Assembly (NCBI GenBank): GCA_934098735.1
Contig: CAKOOS010000005.1
Span: 4,358-68,357, forward strand
Origin: an uncultured Bacilli bacterium
Lineage (GTDB): Bacteria > Bacillota_I > Bacilli_A > RF39 > UBA660
Reading direction: 5' to 3'
DNA length: 64,000 bases
The translations under genes were made by a program, and so were the position numbers. The notes beneath the pieces are model-generated. The model was not told the origin of the DNA, did no database searches, and saw nothing but the letters and a program-made list of their open reading frames with translations. This document shows, in pieces, positions 1,815 to 63,788 of this stretch. Numbering within the stretch: the stretch's first letter is position 1; every line of letters starts with the position of its first letter.

Positions 1815-2767
1815 TATTTACGTCCATCCATTAAGTAAGAAAATATTAAATATCCAGTCTTAAGAGCATCATGTCTATACACTCCATCTTCAATTGTAAA
1901 CAACTTATCAGAAATAACATATATATTATCATTATCAAGTTCATGCATATCTAAAAGAACTGGATCTTTTTGCTCTTCATTAGAGTATTTACTTGCTAAT
2001 TTACTACTCATAATAGCATTATTAGCTATGACAACATCTAATTTATTTTTTCCTAAGTATTTTTCTAAATAATCTAAATGATCTTTAACAGTAAAGCCAT
2101 CTGTTTCTCCAGGTTGAGTAAATAAATTACAAACATATACTTTTTCCCCTTTAGATTTATTTATTATATCAACTAGATCCTTATCAATTAAATGGGGTAT
2201 TATACTTGTAAGTAAACTTCCAGAAGAAAAAATAATTAAATCTGCCTCATTTACAGCCTTTATAACTTTGGGATTTATATTTATTTTTTTATCATATTTA
2301 ACTTCTACAATTTTTTTAGCACATTTAGTAAGTTGTTCTTCTCCCCTAATTTCTTTTCCATCATTTGTAACGCCAATTAAATTTACATTGTCTTCCGTCA
2401 AAGGTATAACAGTACCTTTAACATCTAGTATTTTTTCCATAACTGGCAAAGCACTAGCAAAATTTCCTTTTAAATCTAAAAGAGCCGTTAAAAGTAAATT
2501 TTTAACAGAATGAATTCCTAAACTTTTGGATTTAGTAAAACGATAATTCATTAAATCAATAACATCTTGATTTGTATCTGCCATACTAAGCATAACCTTA
2601 GAAATATCTCCAACAGCAGGAATATTTAGTTCTCTTCTAAGTATTCCTGTACTTTTTCCATTATCAGCAACTGATACAACTGCTGTAATATCAACAGGAA
2701 ATAATTTTATACCCTTTAAAAGTTGTGAAAGACCACTTCCACCACCAAAAATTACTATTTTTTTCAT
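1814..2767 (-). CDS. yvcK: Gluconeogenesis factor / UPF0052 (CofD-like) protein YvcK
   Basis: N-terminal 'IVIFGGGSGLS', 317 aa, directly upstream of whiA. Confidence 0.85.
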   Translation of the reverse strand: MKKIVIFGGGSGLSQLLKGIKLFPVDITAVVSVADNGKSTGILRRELNIPAVGDISKVMLSMADTNQDVIDLMNYRFTKSKSLGIHSVKNLLLTALLDLKGNFASALPVMEKILDVKGTVIPLTEDNVNLIGVTNDGKEIRGEEQLTKCAKKIVEVKYDKKININPKVIKAVNEADLIIFSSGSLLTSIIPHLIDKDLVDIINKSKGEKVYVCNLFTQPGETDGFTVKDHLDYLEKYLGKNKLDVVIANNAIMSSKLASKYSNEEQKDPVLLDMHELDNDNIYVISDKLFTIEDGVYRHDALKTGYLIFSYLMDGRK

Positions 2768-2814
2768 ATTTCATCACAAAACAAGTGTATCATAAATACT
2801 TTTAAAATGCAAAA

Positions 2815-3690
2815 TTACAAAAAGAATCTTTTAGAATTCTTTACTCCTCCACTTACCTCAAAACATTTATCTGTAATAATAAAAGCATCAGGATCTATTT
2901 CTAGTATTTTTTGTTTTAATAAATAATAATCACTGTTATTTACTACACACATAATTAAATAGCCGTTTTTTTGAGTATATCCACCTTTACTAGGAATAGT
3001 TGTAAAACCAGTATGAAATTCATCGATTATTAATTTTTTAATTTTACGCATTTTTTTTGTATAAATATAAAATAATTTACTATCAGATACTCCAAACATA
3101 ATTTTATCAATAAAAAATGTTGAACAAGTTAAAATAATAAAAGAATAAACTCCTTTTGTAAAACCAAATACAATCATTCCTAAAATAATTATGACACTAT
3201 TAGCCACTACCATAGATTTTGATTCCGATATTTTAGCATATTTATTAATTATTTGCATAATTATATCTGATCCTCCAGTAGAAAAACCACTTCGATAAAT
3301 AAGACCACTACTAACACCATATAAAATTACGGCAAAAAGTAAAATTAAATAAAAGTCATCTGTTACTAAATAATTTGTTAAATATGTTGCAACTGGAAGA
3401 GATATAGTTACCATAAGGGGATACAATATAGAACCTAATATATTTTTTTTAGTTACTTCAAAATCTAAAAAAATTGCCCCAATAAAAAGTAATAAAAAGT
3501 TAGTAACATAAATAAACACTTGAGAATTCCAACCAAGAAGTTTTTGAACAACAATTGCAATACCACTAAAACCAGAAACCACTAAATTATTCGGAGTCAA
3601 AAACAAATTAAAACATAAAGCATACAAAAATACTCCAAATACAAAAGAAATTCCATCAATTATAATATCTCGTGTATTATTATCTACCAT
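2815..3690 (-). CDS. YitT-family integral membrane protein (DUF161/DUF2179)
   Basis: Multiple TM helices plus a C-terminal DUF2179-like soluble domain; 291 aa. Confidence 0.65.
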   Translation of the reverse strand: MVDNNTRDIIIDGISFVFGVFLYALCFNLFLTPNNLVVSGFSGIAIVVQKLLGWNSQVFIYVTNFLLLFIGAIFLDFEVTKKNILGSILYPLMVTISLPVATYLTNYLVTDDFYLILLFAVILYGVSSGLIYRSGFSTGGSDIIMQIINKYAKISESKSMVVANSVIIILGMIVFGFTKGVYSFIILTCSTFFIDKIMFGVSDSKLFYIYTKKMRKIKKLIIDEFHTGFTTIPSKGGYTQKNGYLIMCVVNNSDYYLLKQKILEIDPDAFIITDKCFEVSGGVKNSKRFFL

Positions 3691-3787
3691 CTTACTTCCA
3701 TCCTAATCTGCTTTAATTATAAAACATTAATAGTTTTTTGGCAATTATTAATATTTATTTCATATATTGTTTTAGAGGTGATATTTT

Positions 3788-4144
3788 ATGAACGGAAATT
3801 ATTATCAAAATCCAACTTTTCCAACAAACAATTTTCAAACACCACCAGGTAATATGTCAGTAACAGATGTTACTAATAATATTCCGCAAGAACAAAGTTA
3901 TATCGAAAATATTTTACGTTTAAACAAAGGAAGAAAAATAAAAGCTTATGTTTCTTACCCAGATAGCAGTGCTTGGCAAAACAAAGTATACGAAGGAATA
4001 ATTGAAGAAGCTGGAAAAGATCATTTAATAATCAGAGATAACACTAATAATTTATGGTATTTAATTAGAATCATTTACTTAAATTACGTAGAATTTATGG
4101 AACCAATAATTTATTCTCATTCATATTCAGAAAAAACTTACTAA
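3788..4144 (+). CDS. gerQ: Spore coat protein GerQ-like
   Basis: Q/P/N-rich N-terminus. The C-terminal 'SYIENILRLNKGRK...GIIEEAGKDHLIIRD...YLIRIIYLNYVEF' resembles the GerQ/YwdL conserved domain. Confidence 0.5.
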   Translation: MNGNYYQNPTFPTNNFQTPPGNMSVTDVTNNIPQEQSYIENILRLNKGRKIKAYVSYPDSSAWQNKVYEGIIEEAGKDHLIIRDNTNNLWYLIRIIYLNYVEFMEPIIYSHSYSEKTY

Positions 4145-17787: not shown

Positions 17788-19312
17788 TTGTAATTATCCT
17801 ATTAAATAGTATTTCTGGTTTATTCAAAATTATATTTTCTTCTAAAATACCAAAATCATCTATGCTATCTATATCTCTATGCTGAGTATTTAATTGATCT
17901 AAAATCTTTTCACTAGTATCAGGAATAAATGGTTTTAATAAAATAGCACATATTCTTATACATTCTAAAATATTATATAAAACAGTTCTTAATCGATCTT
18001 GCTTACTTTCATCTTTTGCTAAAAGCCAAGGAGTTGTATCATCTATGTACTTATTACATTTTTTTAGGACTTCAAAAATTTCTTCCAAAGCCTCATTTAC
18101 TTTTAATTCATTCATTTTTATATCAACTATAGATTTAATTTTCAGAGCAGATGCAATTAAATCATCATCCAAAGCTTCGTGTACTTTAGGATTTAAAACT
18201 AAACCGTCAAAATATTTATGTCCCATACTTATAGTTCTATTTACAAGATTACCAAGATTATTTACTAAGTCAGTATTAGTTCTATTTACAAGGGCTTCTT
18301 CAGAAAAATTTCCATCATTTCCAAATGATACTTCTCGTAAAGCAAAATATCTTACAGCATCTACGCCATAATCATTTATATATTCTCTAGGATCTTTATA
18401 ATTACCTAATGATTTAGATATTTTACCACCATTAATAACTAGCCATCCATGTCCAAAAATTTGTTTTGGAAGAGGTAAATTTAAAGCCATTAAAAGCGCA
18501 GGCCATATTATGGCATGGAATCTTGTAATTTCTTTACCTACTAAATGCAAATCAGCAGGCCAATATTTTTTAAAAAGCTCACTATTTTCATTTGGATATC
18601 CAAGTGATGTAATATAATTTGATAGTGCATCTATCCAAACATAAATAACATGTTTGGGATCAAAATCAACTGGAATGCCCCATTTAACAGATGTTCTTGA
18701 AACACACAAATCTTCAAGTCCTGGTTTTATAAAATTATTTACAAGTTCATTTTTTCTAGATGTTGGCAAAATAAAATTAGGATTTTCTTCATATAACTTT
18801 ATAAGTTTATCTTGATATTTAGATAATCTAAAAAAGTAAGCTTCTTCAGTAACTAGTTTTACTTCTCTTCCACAATCAGGACATTTACCATCAGCTGCTT
18901 GTGTTTCTGTCCAAAAAGATTCACAAGGAACACAATAAAGTCCTTCATAAGATCCTTTATAAATATCACCTTGTTCATACAATTTTCTAAAAATAGCTTG
19001 AACACCTTTTACATGATATTCATCAGTTGTTCTAATAAAATAATCATAAGAAATATTTAAACTTTTCCATAAATTCTTTGCATTTTCTATAATTACATCA
19101 ACATATTCTTTTGGTGTAACTCCCTTTTCCTTAGCCTTTTGTTCAATTTTTAAACCATGTTCATCAGTGCCAGTTTGAAAGAAAACATCATAACCATTTA
19201 ACCTTTTATACCTTGCAATAGAATCAGCTATAATTGTTGTATAACAATGTCCTATATGAAAATCTGCACTAGGATAATATATTGGTGTAGTTATATAGTA
19301 TTTTTTATTCAT
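17780..19312 (-). CDS. metG: Methionine--tRNA ligase (short form without the C-terminal tRNA-binding domain)
   Basis: 'HIGH'-type 'DFHIGHCYT', the 'KISKS' motif and CxxC zinc knuckles. Confidence 0.92.
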   Translation of the reverse strand: MNKKYYITTPIYYPSADFHIGHCYTTIIADSIARYKRLNGYDVFFQTGTDEHGLKIEQKAKEKGVTPKEYVDVIIENAKNLWKSLNISYDYFIRTTDEYHVKGVQAIFRKLYEQGDIYKGSYEGLYCVPCESFWTETQAADGKCPDCGREVKLVTEEAYFFRLSKYQDKLIKLYEENPNFILPTSRKNELVNNFIKPGLEDLCVSRTSVKWGIPVDFDPKHVIYVWIDALSNYITSLGYPNENSELFKKYWPADLHLVGKEITRFHAIIWPALLMALNLPLPKQIFGHGWLVINGGKISKSLGNYKDPREYINDYGVDAVRYFALREVSFGNDGNFSEEALVNRTNTDLVNNLGNLVNRTISMGHKYFDGLVLNPKVHEALDDDLIASALKIKSIVDIKMNELKVNEALEEIFEVLKKCNKYIDDTTPWLLAKDESKQDRLRTVLYNILECIRICAILLKPFIPDTSEKILDQLNTQHRDIDSIDDFGILEENIILNKPEILFNRIITNE

Positions 19313-19797
19313 TATTCATTCCCTCTTTCTAAATTATTAGTACTGCCTATTCCTCCAACTCTGATATTATCTGTTTTATCATCATCAGTAACTAAAAACT
19401 TCATAAATACAGCTTGACAATAAGCAGTATTTTTCTTTATAACGTAGTCTTTATCTCCTTCATTTTGAAGAGATACAAATATATGACCTTCATTATCAAT
19501 ATTATTATAATAATCACTTTCTACAATACCAACTTGATTTGTAAGACGAACATTCCACTTAAAGCCCATGCTACTTCTTACAAAAATCATTAAAACTTCA
19601 TTATTATTAAAAGCAGCTTTATATCCCGTTGGCAACTTTATTATTTCTCCCGGTTTTATAGTATAATCATTTATTGCAAAAAAATCATACCCAGCACTGT
19701 TTTTAGTAGCTCTCTTAGGAAGCATATAACTATCATATAATGACTCATCAAAGTATTTTTTAAATTCTTCTTTACTTATTTTTTCAAAAAATCGCAA
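19312..19797 (-). CDS. dut: dUTP diphosphatase (trimeric dUTPase family)
   Basis: Five dUTPase motifs: 'SAGYDFF', 'VRSSMGF', 'GIVESDYY', the 'YCQAVF' region and 'RVGGIGSTNN'. The start was set at the TTG preceded by GAGGTGA; the track ORF starts 30 nt earlier. Confidence 0.75.
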   Translation of the reverse strand: MRFFEKISKEEFKKYFDESLYDSYMLPKRATKNSAGYDFFAINDYTIKPGEIIKLPTGYKAAFNNNEVLMIFVRSSMGFKWNVRLTNQVGIVESDYYNNIDNEGHIFVSLQNEGDKDYVIKKNTAYCQAVFMKFLVTDDDKTDNIRVGGIGSTNNLERGNE

Positions 19798-20045
19798 ATT
19801 TATCACCTCACAAAATAAAAAAACCATAAACTAAGGACGAGTATTACCCGCGGTACCACCTTAATTCATGATTTATCATGCATCTTCATTTATAACGTAA
19901 TTACCCGATTTCGACTCCAAAACCATGTTCAATATTTTCCTTTATTCTTTTCCACCAACCAAGAACTCTCTATAAAATTCTTAATATTTACTCTTTTCTT
20001 CAACGTCAAACTAAAAATAGTTTATCATAAAGCTTTTCATTATTC
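19798..20045 (-). promoter_or_regulatory. T-box riboswitch leader with a probable Met (AUG) specifier, upstream of dut-metG
   Basis: Minus-strand RNA contains AAUUAAGGUGGUACCGCGGG (about 19847-19866), a 13/14 match to the T-box consensus AGGGUGGNACCGCG. An upstream AGAGAG/GA-type element and an AUG lie in the putative specifier region (GAACAUGG). The last gene of the operon is metG. Confidence 0.6.
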
Positions 20046-30820: not shown

Positions 30821-30856
30821 AAAAACCTTCTTTTCACAAAAAAAGTGCACACAAAC

Positions 30857-30945
30857 ATAGACTGACGTGGCTGCTATTTTCCAATCCTGACCAGATTACA
30901 GCATATTTGTTGCACGCCTAAATACTATCAAAAATCTTATAAAAA
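30857..30945 (-). ncRNA. ffs: Small (4.5S-type) signal recognition particle RNA; boundaries approximate
   Basis: Minus-strand RNA folds as a long hairpin (GUGCAACAAAUAUG.../...CAUAGUUUGUGUGCAC). Its apical sequence UCUGGUCAGGAUUGGAAAAUAGCAGCC resembles the conserved SRP domain IV (GGUCAGGUCCGGAAGGAAGCAGCC). A U-run follows. SRP RNA lies beside tadA and dnaX in Bacillus. Confidence 0.5.
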
Positions 30946-30987
30946 GTCAATAAAAATTAGATTTTCATATATTATGTTAACCAAAAT

Positions 30988-31001
30988 ATTTCCTGGGAAA
31001 T
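30988..31001. promoter_or_regulatory. Noc-binding-site-like palindrome ATTTCCTGGGAAAT (one mismatch to the NBS consensus)
   Basis: Direct read. The B. subtilis NBS consensus is ATTTCCCGGGAAAT. Confidence 0.55.
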
Positions 31002-31039
31002 AAAATATATGGTTTTTTCCAATATTATGTAAACCAATT

Positions 31040-31053
31040 ATTTCCCGGGAAAT
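31040..31053. promoter_or_regulatory. Noc-binding-site palindrome ATTTCCCGGGAAAT (perfect consensus)
   Basis: Direct read of a perfect 14-bp palindrome identical to the published NBS consensus. Confidence 0.65.
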
Positions 31054-31111
31054 AATTTAAGTTTAATTTTTTGCCAAAAGTACGTTATTTTTGCAAGTAA
31101 ACAAACGTTCG

Positions 31112-31127
31112 TGTTTCACGTGAAACA
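31112..31127. promoter_or_regulatory. parS: parS site 1, TGTTTCACGTGAAACA
   Basis: Perfect 16-bp palindrome matching the Firmicute parS consensus TGTTNCACGTGAAACA. Confidence 0.8.
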
Positions 31128-31302
31128 TATTAACAAGTTATCAACTCTATCTACTTAAAAATAGCAACAAAATACTAACACGAAAAATGTTATATAAAAC
31201 AAACACATTATTAATAATTTTAATTTAATTTTGTACATCTATAGATAACACAGCTATATAATAAAAATTAATTATATAAAAATATAAACAAGTTATCAAC
31301 AA

Positions 31303-31318
31303 TGTTTCACGTGAAACA
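31303..31318. promoter_or_regulatory. parS: parS site 2, TGTTTCACGTGAAACA, immediately preceded by the DnaA-box-like TTATCAACA
   Basis: Identical perfect palindrome. A TTATCAACA 9-mer abuts it at about 31293-31301. Confidence 0.8.
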
Positions 31319-31571
31319 TTAACAACAATATTTTATTGTAGACTAACAAATTAGCAACAATTACTAAATTGTTTAAATTAATTATTATTAATATAATTTA
31401 ATTATAAATATCATTGCAATTGTTATCCTTTATTTAAAAATTAAAACCATTTAATTATTAATAAGCTTGTATTATATTTTACTTAGCTTAATTATTATTA
31501 TTTATTAATATTAATTAATATATTATTATCTATCAAATAAATAAAATTATAATTATTATTATTATTAACTA

Positions 31572-31587
31572 TGTTTCACGTGAAACA
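31572..31587. promoter_or_regulatory. parS: parS site 3, TGTTTCACGTGAAACA
   Basis: Third identical copy within 480 bp. Confidence 0.8.
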
Positions 31588-31713
31588 TTTTAAATTGCAC
31601 TTTTAAATAATTTTATGTAACTAAAAAAGGAAAACTATTAATTGTTTTCCTTTTTCTATTAATTCCTTATTAAATCAATTATTTTTTTAATTCTTGTATA
31701 TACAAAGTATATA

Positions 31714-34171: not shown

Positions 34172-37188
<3,017 letters not shown>

Positions 37189-37304
37189 TTATTTACCCCC
37201 CTTAAGCCCTACATTTAAAATTTAAGGCATAATGGTATACCTATACACATGTTAATTATAACACAAAAAATAACCATTTAAAATAAAAAACAACTTAAAA
37301 TTAT

Positions 37305-37733
37305 TTATTTTCTTGATAAATAAACCCACCATAATCTACTACATTTAAGCAGTTGATTATTTATAATAGTGTAACTAATATTAAGATCCAATTTTAAACC
37401 ATTTTTAAAGTTAATAACTATTAAGTTATCCACTTTTTCTAAGTTATTTATCATGTTAAAATTTATCCAAATAACCTCCATTTTAATATAAAGCGGAAAA
37501 AATATTAAACAATTTTTTTCATTAATAATAATTGGTAACTTATATTTTCCCCCGAGCAAACTACTACTTCCCTGAACTCTCCCTTTAAAAGAACTTCCAT
37601 AATAAACACAACTATTATTCAAAATACAACTTAAAACATTACCATTAAATGAATATTCTTCACTAACTTCTTTTACTAAAGTACTATAACTACACGCCCT
37701 AATATAAAGAGTATCTTGCGTAATCGTATACAT
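37305..37733 (-). CDS. ComK-family (competence transcription factor-like) protein, short form
   Basis: 'CVYYGSSFKGRVQGSSSLLG...KLPIIINEKNCLIFFPL' parallels the B. subtilis ComK core 'CVFYVN...FFGSSYAGRKAGT...KPPIMVDPSNQIFLFPT'. It has its own promoter-like TTGACA-N18-TAGTAT. Confidence 0.45.
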   Translation of the reverse strand: MYTITQDTLYIRACSYSTLVKEVSEEYSFNGNVLSCILNNSCVYYGSSFKGRVQGSSSLLGGKYKLPIIINEKNCLIFFPLYIKMEVIWINFNMINNLEKVDNLIVINFKNGLKLDLNISYTIINNQLLKCSRLWWVYLSRK

Positions 37734-37788
37734 AGTTTCTCCTTTCTTTTGGCGGTTATCATACTACGCTAAAAATAAAAAAATTGTC

Positions 37789-37817
37789 AAAAAAAAGAAC
37801 AAATATTAAATTTGTTC
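37789..37817 (-). terminator. Rho-independent terminator after dnaN
   Basis: Minus-strand hairpin GAACAAAT-TTAAT-ATTTGTTC followed by a U8 run. Confidence 0.6.
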
Positions 37818-37822
37818 AATTT

Positions 37823-38941
37823 TTAATAAGTTTTAATTGGTAATATTAATTCTGTAAGGGTTTCATCAGTTACAGGTTTAATTAAAATTGGTTTATCATC
37901 TGTATTTAATAGAAGTAAAATATTATCTTCTTTAATTACCTTTAAAGCATCCATCATATATTTAGAACTGAAAGAAATTTCAATTTTTTCTTTATTATTA
38001 CAATCAATATGAAGTTTTTCTTCAGCATTACCAAGTTCATTAGATGTTGATGTAATTATCATATCTTTATCTTGAATATGCATTTTTATTATATTTTTTT
38101 CTTTATTTTGAGCAAGTAAAGCTGCTCTATCAACAGCATCATAAAACTCTTTTAAATTTAAATTAATCATATATGCAAAATCATTTGGAATAAAATGAGA
38201 TGTTTCTGGATATGATCCACTTAAAAGATTACTTTGAATATAAATATTTTTATAAACAAATAATATTTTGTTAGTAAATACATATATTTCCACATCATCA
38301 TCTTCGGCAATAATCTTTTCAAGTTCTGTAATACTTCTTCCAGGTATAACAATATTTACTTGTTTTTGACTAGGAACTTCTAATTTAATATTCTTTTTTG
38401 ATAAACGATAAGAATCAGTTGCAATACATTCTAAAATATCTCCATTTATTTTTAAGTTAATTCCTGTTAATAAAGGTCTAACTTCTTGTGTAGATAAAGC
38501 ATAAGATGTTTGATTAATTATTTCTCTTAAAACTTCTGATTTAATAGTAATTGATTCCTTACTTTTTTCAATATTAATATTTGGATAATCTTGAGGATTA
38601 TAACAGTTCAAACGATATTGATTGTTAGGTGTGCTTATTTTTATCTTTTGAGCTTCCTCTATTTCAAAATCTATTACATCTGCAGGCATTTTTCTTATCA
38701 TATCTAGAAAATATTTACTTTGAATGATAATTCTTCCTTTACCTTCCATGTGTTTAATATTTTCTTCTGGAATCATAACCTTAATAGTAAGTTCACTATC
38801 ACTTGCTAAAAGTTCTATACCCTTTTCTGTAATATCAAAAACTATTCCATTTAAAACAGCTATAGTTGTTCTCTGACTTAAAGCTTTTGTAACATTATTT
38901 AAAGCTTCTAAAATAACATTTTTTTCAATTGTCCATTTCAT
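37823..38941 (-). CDS. dnaN: DNA polymerase III beta sliding clamp
   Basis: 372 aa three-domain clamp, downstream of dnaA. Confidence 0.9.
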   Translation of the reverse strand: MKWTIEKNVILEALNNVTKALSQRTTIAVLNGIVFDITEKGIELLASDSELTIKVMIPEENIKHMEGKGRIIIQSKYFLDMIRKMPADVIDFEIEEAQKIKISTPNNQYRLNCYNPQDYPNINIEKSKESITIKSEVLREIINQTSYALSTQEVRPLLTGINLKINGDILECIATDSYRLSKKNIKLEVPSQKQVNIVIPGRSITELEKIIAEDDDVEIYVFTNKILFVYKNIYIQSNLLSGSYPETSHFIPNDFAYMINLNLKEFYDAVDRAALLAQNKEKNIIKMHIQDKDMIITSTSNELGNAEEKLHIDCNNKEKIEISFSSKYMMDALKVIKEDNILLLLNTDDKPILIKPVTDETLTELILPIKTY

Positions 38942-39057
38942 ATTTTTTTCCTTCTTTCTTTTATTTATTTTTTAATATTTATATTAATAGTGTTGATAAT
39001 GTTGATAAGTTTTTTTTTCTAGATATATTCCTTACAAAATAACTTTTCTTATCAACA
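38942..39057. promoter_or_regulatory. oriC: oriC part 2 (dnaA-dnaN intergenic): AT-rich DNA unwinding element plus three DnaA-box-like 9-mers
   Basis: TGTTGATAA at about 38991-38999 and 39000-39008, and TTATCAACA at about 39049-39057. An AT tract TTTTATTTATTTTTTAATATTTATATTAATA lies between them. Confidence 0.7.
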
Positions 39058-40401
39058 TTATTGTAACTTCATCTTTATTTCTTTCAACATGTTATTAAGA
39101 TTATCATTTACTTCTAACTCTTCCTTTATTTTATCACATGCTGTAGATACTGTCGAGTGATCTCTTCCTCCGAATTCAAGGCCAATTTTAGCCAAGTTTT
39201 CATCTGTTTCAACCCGGCATAAATACATGGCTATATGCCTTGGTCTTACAACTGTATTAGTTCTTCTTTTACTTTTTAAATCATCAACGGATATTTTAAA
39301 GTACTCTGCTACGGCACTTTGAATTGATGCTATTGAATTGTTGATAAATATATTGGTATTAACATAATCCTTTAAAGCCTCATTAGCAAAATCAAGGGTT
39401 ATTTTATCCGGTACCATCATTGCTGTATATGCTAATAATCTATTAATTGTCCCTTCTATATGTCTTACATCATTTACACATGAATTAGCTATATATTCAA
39501 TAACATCTTCATTCAATTTATTTTCTATGCTTGTATTTTTAATCTTTGCCTTAATTATTTCGCACCTAAGATTAAAGTCTGGAGGATATATATCAACGGG
39601 TAATCCCCACATAAATCTACTTCGTAATCTCTCTTCTATCTTTTTTAAATCATCAGGACTTTTATCACTACTTATGATTATTTGTTTATTTGCTTGATGT
39701 AAAGCATTAAATGTGTGAAAAAATTCTTGTTGAGTTCTCTCAGCTCCAACTAAAAACTGTATATCATCAATTATTAAAACATCAACATTTCGGTACTTAT
39801 TTTTAAATTCATTTGCATAATTTAAATTATTATTACTAGTTGCAATTCCTGTAAATTCAGTCATAAATTCATTACTAGTTGTATAAAGAACCTTAAGTTT
39901 AGAATGATCTTTAATATAATTTCCAATTGCTTGCATTAAATGCGTTTTTCCAAGACCACTTCTTCCATATATAAATAATGGATTATGAATAGTACCAGGT
40001 GCTTCTGCAACAGCTCTTGCAGCTACAAAAGCTAACCTATTTGAATTACCTACAATATAAGAATCAAATGTAAATTTTGGATTTAAATTAGTATTCCACT
40101 CTACTTCTTTTTCCAATACTTCTTCTTCTACAACTGGCTGAACAAAAGTTTCAACTTCATCCTCAGTAATATATTTAAATGTATAGTTTATTCCAGTCAT
40201 TGAGAAAAACGATGCATCAATTATATCAGCATAAGTCTCAGTAAGCATCTGTTTATGAATTTCCATTGGAACTTTTATTGTTACTACATTGTTGACAATT
40301 GAAAGTAGTTCAAGTTTTGAAAACCAAATAGTATATGCATTTTGACTTACTTGTGTTTGAATATCATTTAAAAAACGCAAAAAAAGCTCATCTGTTTTCA
40401 T
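39058..40401 (-). CDS. dnaA: Chromosomal replication initiator protein DnaA
   Basis: AAA+ Walker A 'GRSGLGKTHL' and a domain IV HTH. Confidence 0.95.
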   Translation of the reverse strand: MKTDELFLRFLNDIQTQVSQNAYTIWFSKLELLSIVNNVVTIKVPMEIHKQMLTETYADIIDASFFSMTGINYTFKYITEDEVETFVQPVVEEEVLEKEVEWNTNLNPKFTFDSYIVGNSNRLAFVAARAVAEAPGTIHNPLFIYGRSGLGKTHLMQAIGNYIKDHSKLKVLYTTSNEFMTEFTGIATSNNNLNYANEFKNKYRNVDVLIIDDIQFLVGAERTQQEFFHTFNALHQANKQIIISSDKSPDDLKKIEERLRSRFMWGLPVDIYPPDFNLRCEIIKAKIKNTSIENKLNEDVIEYIANSCVNDVRHIEGTINRLLAYTAMMVPDKITLDFANEALKDYVNTNIFINNSIASIQSAVAEYFKISVDDLKSKRRTNTVVRPRHIAMYLCRVETDENLAKIGLEFGGRDHSTVSTACDKIKEELEVNDNLNNMLKEIKMKLQ

Positions 40402-40722
40402 ACCTCACCCCACTAACAAATTTCATAACTAAATTTTATACCATTTTCTGTTAAAAAAAAAGAGTAAATTTTAAAAAACTTATTATTCACAAAATTATCA
40501 ACGACAAAAGTCCCTAAAATTCGACATTTATTATAGTTATCAACACTATCAACAAATTTAAACTAACAATAAGACTTATTCACAAATTATAAACAATAAG
40601 GATTTAATAAAATGTTGTTAATTTTGTGGATTATTTTGTAAAGTTATCAACAAATTATCCACAATCTCCAAAAAACGATAGTTATCAACCATAATAGATG
40701 ATATAATAATAAAGGTGTAAAA
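40402..40722. promoter_or_regulatory. oriC: oriC part 1: cluster of about 9 DnaA boxes upstream of dnaA. One is a perfect TTATCCACA at about 40655-40663; the others are TTATCAACA/TTATTCACA variants
   Basis: Direct read of repeated TTATC[AC]ACA 9-mers in both orientations. Confidence 0.75.
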
Positions 40723-60191: not shown

Positions 60192-60286
60192 ATTAATATT
60201 TTGCCTTGCTAATAAAAAAAAATATGATATAATAGTTAAGAAACGAATTACTATGTCATGAACTTGACATGGCGGAAGGAGAGAGT

Positions 60287-63694: not shown

Positions 63695-63788
63695 ATAATT
63701 GTTGTTGTCGATTTTTGTCGAACGATTTATCTTGAATAATACTTGACTTCGTGGTACAGTTTAAGTGTGGGAAGGAGTTGAGTGATCA

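Follow-up and report, generated by a model that had tools for sequence, protein, structure and literature searches.

A short ComK-family gene fixed in the dnaN-recF slot of a deep lineage of uncultured Bacilli, with putative 0A-type boxes in the promoters of most relatives

In B. subtilis, the slot between dnaN and recF holds yaaA (BSU00030) (PMC3814617). In a 64-kb stretch of DNA from an uncultured Bacilli bacterium (contig CAKOOS010000005.1; hereafter the window, meaning the whole 64,000 nt analyzed), the same slot carries an open reading frame (ORF) of 142 aa that an annotation made from the sequence alone (hereafter the original prediction) had read as a homolog of the competence regulator ComK. 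This raises the question of what the gene is, how it is expressed at this position and what its product might do. The gene and its immediate surroundings are as follows, the identities of the neighboring genes being Pfam matches recorded for identical public contigs.

37305..37733, minus strand: short ComK-family gene, 142 aa (ORF and Pfam PF06338)
37743..37739, minus strand: Shine-Dalgarno sequence AGGAG, 5 nt ahead of the ATG, read from the sequence
37823..38941, minus strand: dnaN, the upstream neighbor (three DNA_pol3_beta matches)
36091..37188, minus strand: recF, the downstream neighbor (ORF list and Pfam)
39058..40401: dnaA, upstream of dnaN

A profile hidden Markov model search placed the product in the ComK family, PF06338, with an expectation value (E) of 1.6e-23; at 83.6 bits the score clears the curated cut-off of 22.3, and the match was nearly full length, running over residues 2-134 of the protein and positions 4-143 of the 152-position profile. 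BLASTP against B. subtilis ComK gave 26% identity between residues 37-141 and ComK residues 50-157 (E 1e-14); the C-terminus of the ComK query matches the degron given in PMC8138137. The peptide similarities quoted in the original prediction coincide with invariant columns of the family alignment (C42, G46 S47 S48, G51 R52, L66 P67 I68, F78 F79 P80 and W89), and the core motifs C-x-[YF]-[YF]-G-S-S-x-x-G-R, K-x-P-I, F-F-P and W are present and align with ComK 50-157. The family assignment thus holds, as does the ORF itself, which has an ATG start and the AGGAG listed above; relatives show a GGAGG/GGGGG ribosome-binding site at the equivalent place when the dnaN-ComK intergenic regions are compared. 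A search of the 142-aa protein against NCBIfam gave no match. The 97 homologs collected all belong to PF06338, measure 139-153 aa when full length and come from human-gut and rumen assemblies, one of them being labeled 'Clostridium sp. CAG:609'. A profile search of 1.84 billion representatives returned 1,797 clusters at E <= 1e-3, of which at least 114 (50% identity) reached E <= 1e-30; nearly all of the top ~100 matches were 140-157 aa long, and it was not until about E 1e-33 that proteins of the classical ~190 aa appeared. Placing the gene in this family is routine, since NCBI already names another short-ComK subclade 'competence protein ComK [Bacilli bacterium]', and for this reason the finding is a useful lead rather than a major surprise.

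By sequence, then, the product is a ComK-family member, and it is predicted to be a short, ComK2-like DNA-binding regulator. An AlphaFold2 model built from a 14-sequence alignment (predicted local distance difference test score 92.6, predicted template modeling score 0.87) contains nine strands and three helices (H34-44, H49-60 and H121-141); the model of S. aureus ComK2 likewise has nine strands and three helices (PMC12491500). A sequence search of the PDB found no match, and no ComK structure was found there. The best fold matches in the PDB were LytTR DNA-binding domains, with probabilities of 0.94-1.0 and weak template modeling (TM) scores of 0.4-0.5; 3d6w was matched at E 3e-3, probability 1.0 and TM 0.41/0.51, and S. 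pneumoniae ComE (4cbv) was matched as well. At 13-17% identity and with no Pfam LytTR match for the 142-aa protein, this likeness of the model is one of fold and not of family membership; a fold likeness of ComK, LytTR and RemA has been remarked earlier in a preprint (PMC13232269). A SirA-like fold was also considered and was absent among the 50 best PDB matches listed.

The end of the protein aligns at about residue 157 of B. subtilis ComK (192 aa), with the C-terminal ~35 residues absent, and the whole short family stops at this point, whereas the ~190-aa relatives extend beyond it. In B. subtilis ComK the C-terminal FMLYPK...GERY segment is the MecA/ClpC degron (PMC8138137), and deleting the last 25 residues of ComK is reported to abolish comG activation but not DNA binding (Susanna 2006, as cited in PMC3128618). 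Natural truncations exist: B. cereus ComK2 is without 22 C-terminal residues and lowers comG expression (PMC3128618), and S. aureus ComK2, which is without the extra N-terminal residues and the additional C-terminal helix of ComK1, represses comG (PMC12491500). The present protein resembles these ComK2 proteins in being a natural ComK without the C-terminal helix and in its predicted secondary-structure elements (PMC12491500, PMC3128618), and differs in that the ComK2 paralogs coexist with a full-length ComK1 and have been shown to lower comG expression, while the gene described here lies in the dnaN-recF slot and has 0A-type boxes in most relatives. With B. subtilis ComK it shares the Pfam family, the conserved core and, if those boxes are indeed 0A boxes, direct control of the promoter by Spo0A~P (PMC3297582); it differs in being only 26% identical, in the absence of ~13 N-terminal as well as the ~35 C-terminal residues, in having no ComK boxes in its own promoter and in its genomic position. 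Given that the C-terminal activation and degron region is absent, a master-activator action like that in B. subtilis is not to be assumed, and control by MecA/ClpCP through the known degron would not be possible.

The dnaA-gyrA cluster of B. subtilis has two small genes, yaaA and yaaB. In the window gyrB and gyrA follow downstream of recF, and recF and gyrB overlap by 4 nt (36091-36094) without a remB/yaaB (DUF721) gene in between. The 142-aa protein had no S4-domain match in Pfam at E <= 10 and the dnaN-recF slot holds no S4-domain gene, so that both yaaA and yaaB are missing from their usual places and the ComK-like ORF does occupy the place of yaaA, as had been claimed. Relative to YaaA/RlbA, the usual Firmicutes occupant, the gene has the same position and a similar small size, but it belongs to an unrelated family and has its own regulated promoter.

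The original prediction had regarded a ComK homolog wedged into the replication cluster as unexpected. Comparison with relatives qualifies this view, as the arrangement is not an oddity of a single genome but an old and stable one of a deep lineage. A metagenome scan with the family alignment yielded 80 loci, which were sorted by tblastn with the window's own proteins (L numbers denote related loci here). In 66 of the 80, dnaN lies directly upstream and recF directly downstream of the ComK-like gene, and a further 9 run into a contig end on one side, with the expected neighbor on the other. ComK-like genes at this conserved position encode 139-156 aa, and among the longer contigs examined all bar three show the order dnaA-dnaN-ComK-recF-gyrB-gyrA. 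The order is kept at ComK identities of 49% (L002-4), 46% (L008-9, L012-13) and 37% (L010-11); identity to the window ranges across the loci from 38 to 89% for DnaN and from 64 to 93% for GyrB, from which we take the arrangement to be old. The sampled loci all have 23-28% G+C. A 'Bacilli bacterium' metagenome-assembled genome (MAG) of a different ComK subclade (L096) again shows dnaN-ComK-recF, and two close relatives of its protein are encoded elsewhere, one between pcrA-ligA and cca-dnaD-nth, again among DNA-metabolism genes (L073, 3634-4080), and one after pheT, LemA and an unknown 617-aa gene (L097, 5001-5450). With L096 in the slot and its close relatives outside it, the dnaN-recF slot is probably ancestral, with occasional relocation of the gene.

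Individual loci depart from this picture in other ways. In the rumen-lineage locus L057 a 2.1-kb insertion separates dnaN from the ComK-like gene and contains a 600-aa ORF (1989-3791) with no Pfam match; the ComK-like gene retains its box-bearing promoter downstream of the insertion. L038 is without dnaN upstream, L042 is without recF downstream, and in L018 (43-1191) the N-terminal 77 aa are 97% identical and continue into a 382-aa ORF; these three short or odd contigs may be assembly chimeras or rearranged variants. The sole match in a single-protein scan of a genome collection, L001 (CAZSXH010000115.1), is a 2.5-kb contig binned as 'uncultured Muribaculaceae'; because its DnaN is 90% identical to the window's and it carries the ComK-like gene, it is almost certainly a mis-binned contig of the low-GC lineage.

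The signals that separate the gene from dnaN and recF in the window are the following.

37817..37789, minus strand: intrinsic terminator after dnaN, an 8-bp hairpin GAACAAAU-UUAAU-AUUUGUUC followed by U8
37761..37790, minus strand: own promoter, TTGACA (37790..37785), 18 nt, TAGTAT (37766..37761) (promoter match; homologous position in relatives)
37785..37791, minus strand: putative decayed 0A-type box TTTGACA, one mismatch from TTCGACA, aligned with the perfect box of sister species
37255..37282, minus strand: separate recF-gyrB-gyrA promoter, TTTAAA-16-TG-TATAAT with extended -10 (promoter match)
37235..37246, minus strand: conserved 12-nt motif GTATAGGTATAC, 8-10 nt past the recF -10, about +2..+15

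The terminator proposed between dnaN and the ComK-like gene was borne out: the hairpin and U8 directly follow the dnaN stop codon and, A/T-rich as they are, fold at -7 kcal/mol (z -2.5). An automated terminator scan missed this hairpin because the scan requires at least three G-C pairs and the hairpin has only two. Of 68 distinct relatives, 43 have a hairpin with a T-run ahead of the ComK-like gene, and 22 of 66 loci have one behind it; the gyrB-internal control gave 0 of 34. In the window no terminator follows the gene (-1.8 kcal/mol, z 0.07), and read-through into recF is therefore possible there. Of the claim that the gene has its own promoter, the match itself proved to carry little weight, as promoter-like matches in the AT-rich window are at chance (22 found, 17.8 expected); what makes TTGACA-18-TAGTAT credible is its conservation at the homologous position in relatives. 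Together with the separate promoter for recF-gyrB-gyrA, these data define the ComK-like gene as an insulated, separately regulated unit in the origin-proximal cluster.

Immediately ahead of an extended -10 element (TGnTAnnAT), the corresponding promoters of relatives have TTCGACA in one to three direct copies, often TTTTCGACAAAAT, and TTCGACA is the exact reverse complement (7-of-7) of TGTCGAA, the core of the Spo0A 0A box. Counted in the 120 nt upstream of the start codon at 68 distinct loci (8,160 nt in total), there were 68 perfect copies in a single orientation and zero in the other, with at least one perfect copy in 48 of the 68 loci, at least two in 17, and the relaxed box NN[CT]GACA in 65. 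The remaining 446,652 nt of the loci contained 20 copies over both strands, which corresponds to a ~370-fold enrichment per strand upstream of the gene. Successive boxes are spaced by 10 bp in 36 cases and by 20 bp in 8; at three-box loci the boxes begin 19, 29 and 39 nt ahead of the -10 hexamer, and the single-box sister species show TTCGACA-21 nt-TGnTATTAT. Since the relocated genes (L097, L073) keep degenerate boxes phased at 10 bp, the boxes belong to the gene and not to the origin. A reading of TTCGACA as a DnaA-box variant was rejected, as the local DnaA boxes are canonical TTATC[CA]ACA and are clustered at oriC, not before the ComK-like gene.

The motif was also seen elsewhere. In three lineages it stands before dnaA (8 of 51 upstream regions, 0.9 expected), recalling the Spo0A boxes carried by the oriC of B. 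subtilis (PMC2731898): in the window a perfect TTCGACA lies at 40520-40526, within the DnaA-box cluster upstream of dnaA, and two other lineages (L008/L012/L061; L092) have comparable boxes at a distance of 30-125 nt upstream of dnaA. At 63706-63722 of the window, a tandem TGTCGAT-TTT-TGTCGAA, one mismatch from two perfect boxes, stands ~70 nt upstream of the ATG (63790) of a cold-shock protein (csp) gene and is oriented opposite to the boxes of the ComK promoters.

In the window itself the ComK promoter has one degenerate box and no tandem. Sister species (L002, L016-L039) have a perfect TTCGACA at the aligned position, and the window and one sister (L001) share TTTGACA. Read on TGTCGAA this amounts to G5>A, a change that lowers the affinity of the Spo0A DNA-binding domain ~10-fold in vitro (PMC3485338). 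It also gives rise to a perfect TTGACA -35 element with an 18-nt spacer, so that expression in the window species may depend less on Spo0A.

The spoIIG promoter is over-spaced (22 bp), and Spo0A~P contacts sigma-A there. Judged from their sequences, the promoters of the relatives would resemble this type and the PcomK type, having a TGTCGAA tandem with a 3-bp gap at or over the sigma-A -35 region and, in single-box relatives, a 21-nt gap to the extended -10; the window copy differs from Spo0A-dependent promoters in its degenerate box and normal 18-nt spacing. Spo0A of B. subtilis and of C. difficile alike recognizes the TGTCGAA core (PMC3485338), documented Spo0A sites include pairs of boxes 3 bp apart, i.e., with the same 10-bp period (PMC2731898), and in B. 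subtilis the comK promoter is bound directly by Spo0A~P, which activates it first and represses it later (PMC3297582). We propose that the TTCGACA repeats would be 0A boxes from which Spo0A~P, at about -31, -41 and -51, gates an extended -10 sigma-A promoter; expression of the gene would then begin as the cell enters stationary phase or sporulation, in parallel to the Spo0A~P control of B. subtilis PcomK, and in the window species and its closest sister the promoter would have drifted toward Spo0A independence. The window carries the sporulation genes yabG, spoVG, yabP, yabQ, gerQ, spoVT, spoIIR, spoIID and spoIIID, which agrees with the original description of the genome as sporulating. In our judgment it is probable that Spo0A~P gates the ComK-like promoter through most of the lineage, with a weaker link in the window species.

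Several points weigh against this reading. The window box is imperfect at a base contacted by Spo0A and the Spo0A link rests on the relatives; the sporulation genes seen come from the window species alone, and the perfect boxes from relatives; lying over the -35 region, the boxes could serve to repress and not to activate; the TTCGACA repeats could be sites of the ComK-like protein itself or of another factor; and pairs of ComK boxes in the window number one per spacing, which is chance level, and both are intragenic. That the repeats are an operator of the ComK-like protein, i.e., autoregulation, or of some other lineage-specific factor and not of Spo0A, is unlikely on the balance of these data. 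LytTR domains, which the predicted fold resembles, bind direct repeats, the boxes move along with the relocated gene, and sporulation is shown for the window species only, all of which would suit autoregulation. However, the box type and the 10-bp period are unlike both the A/T tracts (AAAA-N5-TTTT) that are the known ComK sites and the ~21-bp period of LytTR repeats, and the motif is present before dnaA, too, and in tandem before the csp gene. While B. subtilis ComK does activate its own promoter (PMC3297582), the repeats match 7-of-7 a motif that was specified in advance and show its known 3-bp inter-box gap (PMC2731898, PMC3485338).

As to what the product does, the protein would bind DNA through the conserved ComK core and, without the MecA degron and the C-terminal activation/tetramerisation segment, would escape MecA/ClpCP control. 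The explanation that we favor as a whole, with modest confidence, is a ComK2-like regulator encoded as its own unit between dnaN and recF and under predicted Spo0A~P gating. As the lineage's only ComK, such a protein might activate genes that serve DNA uptake and recombination, a possibility that on the sequence data we place slightly below an even chance. None of the late competence genes looked for (comE, comF, comG, dprA and ssbB) lies within the 64-kb window, and no paired AAAA-N5-TTTT ComK boxes were found in the dnaN-ComK intergenic regions of the window and its relatives. It is somewhat unlikely that the protein is instead a ComK2-type negative modulator that damps competence or other genes, possibly beside a full-length ComK elsewhere. 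The C-terminal region is absent as in the B. cereus and S. aureus ComK2 proteins that lower or repress comG, and the modeled count of secondary-structure elements equals that of S. aureus ComK2; yet the analysis linked no full-length ComK to these genomes, the ~190-aa profile matches being only more distant relatives, and a single-copy gene that is present across the lineage and under purifying selection might just as well be its only ComK. A role unconnected with competence, as an origin-linked DNA-binding factor switched on at sporulation entry, is improbable; the protein would in that case act on the motif at the +1 of recF-gyrB-gyrA, or on TTCGACA at its own promoter and oriC, and would couple replication or DNA topology to the sporulation decision, a coupling that in Bacillus is done by unrelated proteins such as SirA. 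Lastly, the gene could be thought a functionless decaying or hitch-hiking remnant, or a mis-called ORF in AT-rich DNA, since it evolves much faster than its neighbors (in the sister clade, 48-57% identity for the ComK-like protein in comparison to 87-94% for DnaA, 87-89% for DnaN, 68-71% for RecF and 84-93% for GyrB) and has no NCBIfam match. This is scarcely credible and is already contradicted by the data: despite its fast evolution the gene is under purifying selection, the ratio of nonsynonymous to synonymous substitution (dN/dS) being mostly 0.02-0.35 among relatives in pairs with enough differences, its core motifs are invariant, its length, Shine-Dalgarno sequence and promoter are conserved down to 38% DnaN identity, and the AlphaFold2 model is confident.

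We found no description in the literature of a short ComK fixed in the yaaA slot, of a ComK linked to the dnaN-recF position, or of the 0A-type promoter architecture; what is new here is such a gene fixed in that slot across a deep uncultured lineage, together with a conserved 0A-type promoter architecture. ComK has so far been studied almost only in Bacillus and Staphylococcus, and the clusters found at E <= 1e-30 reveal a large and diverse short-ComK family in uncultured small-genome Bacilli of gut and rumen, with the gene fixed in the dnaA operon region and a promoter motif that predicts direct control by Spo0A. If this prediction is true, the link from Spo0A to ComK is older than Bacillus, and the three-box promoters and a confidently folding protein of 140-150 aa would offer a handle on whether these abundant organisms of the gut, on starting to sporulate, become competent or enter a K-state-like arrest. 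The family also offers a natural comparison of ComK proteins with and without the degron and activation tail.

The promoter downstream of the gene is itself conserved, the extended -10 TnTGnTATAAT before recF being kept in all relatives. The 12-nt motif that follows it has the consensus GT(A/G)T(A/G)GG(A/T)(G/A)TAC, was found at a fixed distance in 43 of 57 distinct leaders and is kept down to 36% RecF identity (e.g., L083, 4501-4520, and L096, 5524-5535); it occurs once in the window. The recF leader had no Rfam match, and RNAalifold found no conserved fold in it, only a 4-bp hairpin at -0.3 kcal/mol. The motif may serve as an operator, as a supercoiling-sensitive discriminator in the gyrase promoter or as an AGGAG-containing 5′ stabilizer.

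The surroundings are those of the chromosomal origin, as a switch in GC skew falls at about 40.5 kb and canonical DnaA boxes, TTATC[CA]ACA, cluster at 40483-40663, upstream of dnaA, and at 38991-39057, between dnaA and dnaN. The original description of the genome as compact has indirect support only: contigs of more distant relatives reach 1.32-1.36 Mb, the longest of the window species is 356 kb, and G+C is 25%. No tRNA genes were found within the window. Three structured RNAs were matched by Rfam at gathering score.

19830-20012, minus strand: T-box leader
30836-30921, minus strand: small signal recognition particle (SRP) RNA
60251-60281, plus strand: L31 ribosomal-protein leader

The T-box leader lies ~3 nt upstream of a dUTPase-like ORF (19312-19827), which is directly followed by a Met-tRNA-synthetase-like gene. 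Between gyrA and the SRP RNA, a 790-bp stretch (30922-31713) has no ORF of at least 30 aa. It holds three perfect parS sites TGTTTCACGTGAAACA at 31112-31127, 31303-31318 and 31572-31587 (0.01 expected by chance), two of them flanked by DnaA-box-like GTTATCAAC(A), and, just upstream of the SRP RNA at 30962-31052, two ~38-nt direct repeats that each contain a TTTCCnGGGAAA palindrome.

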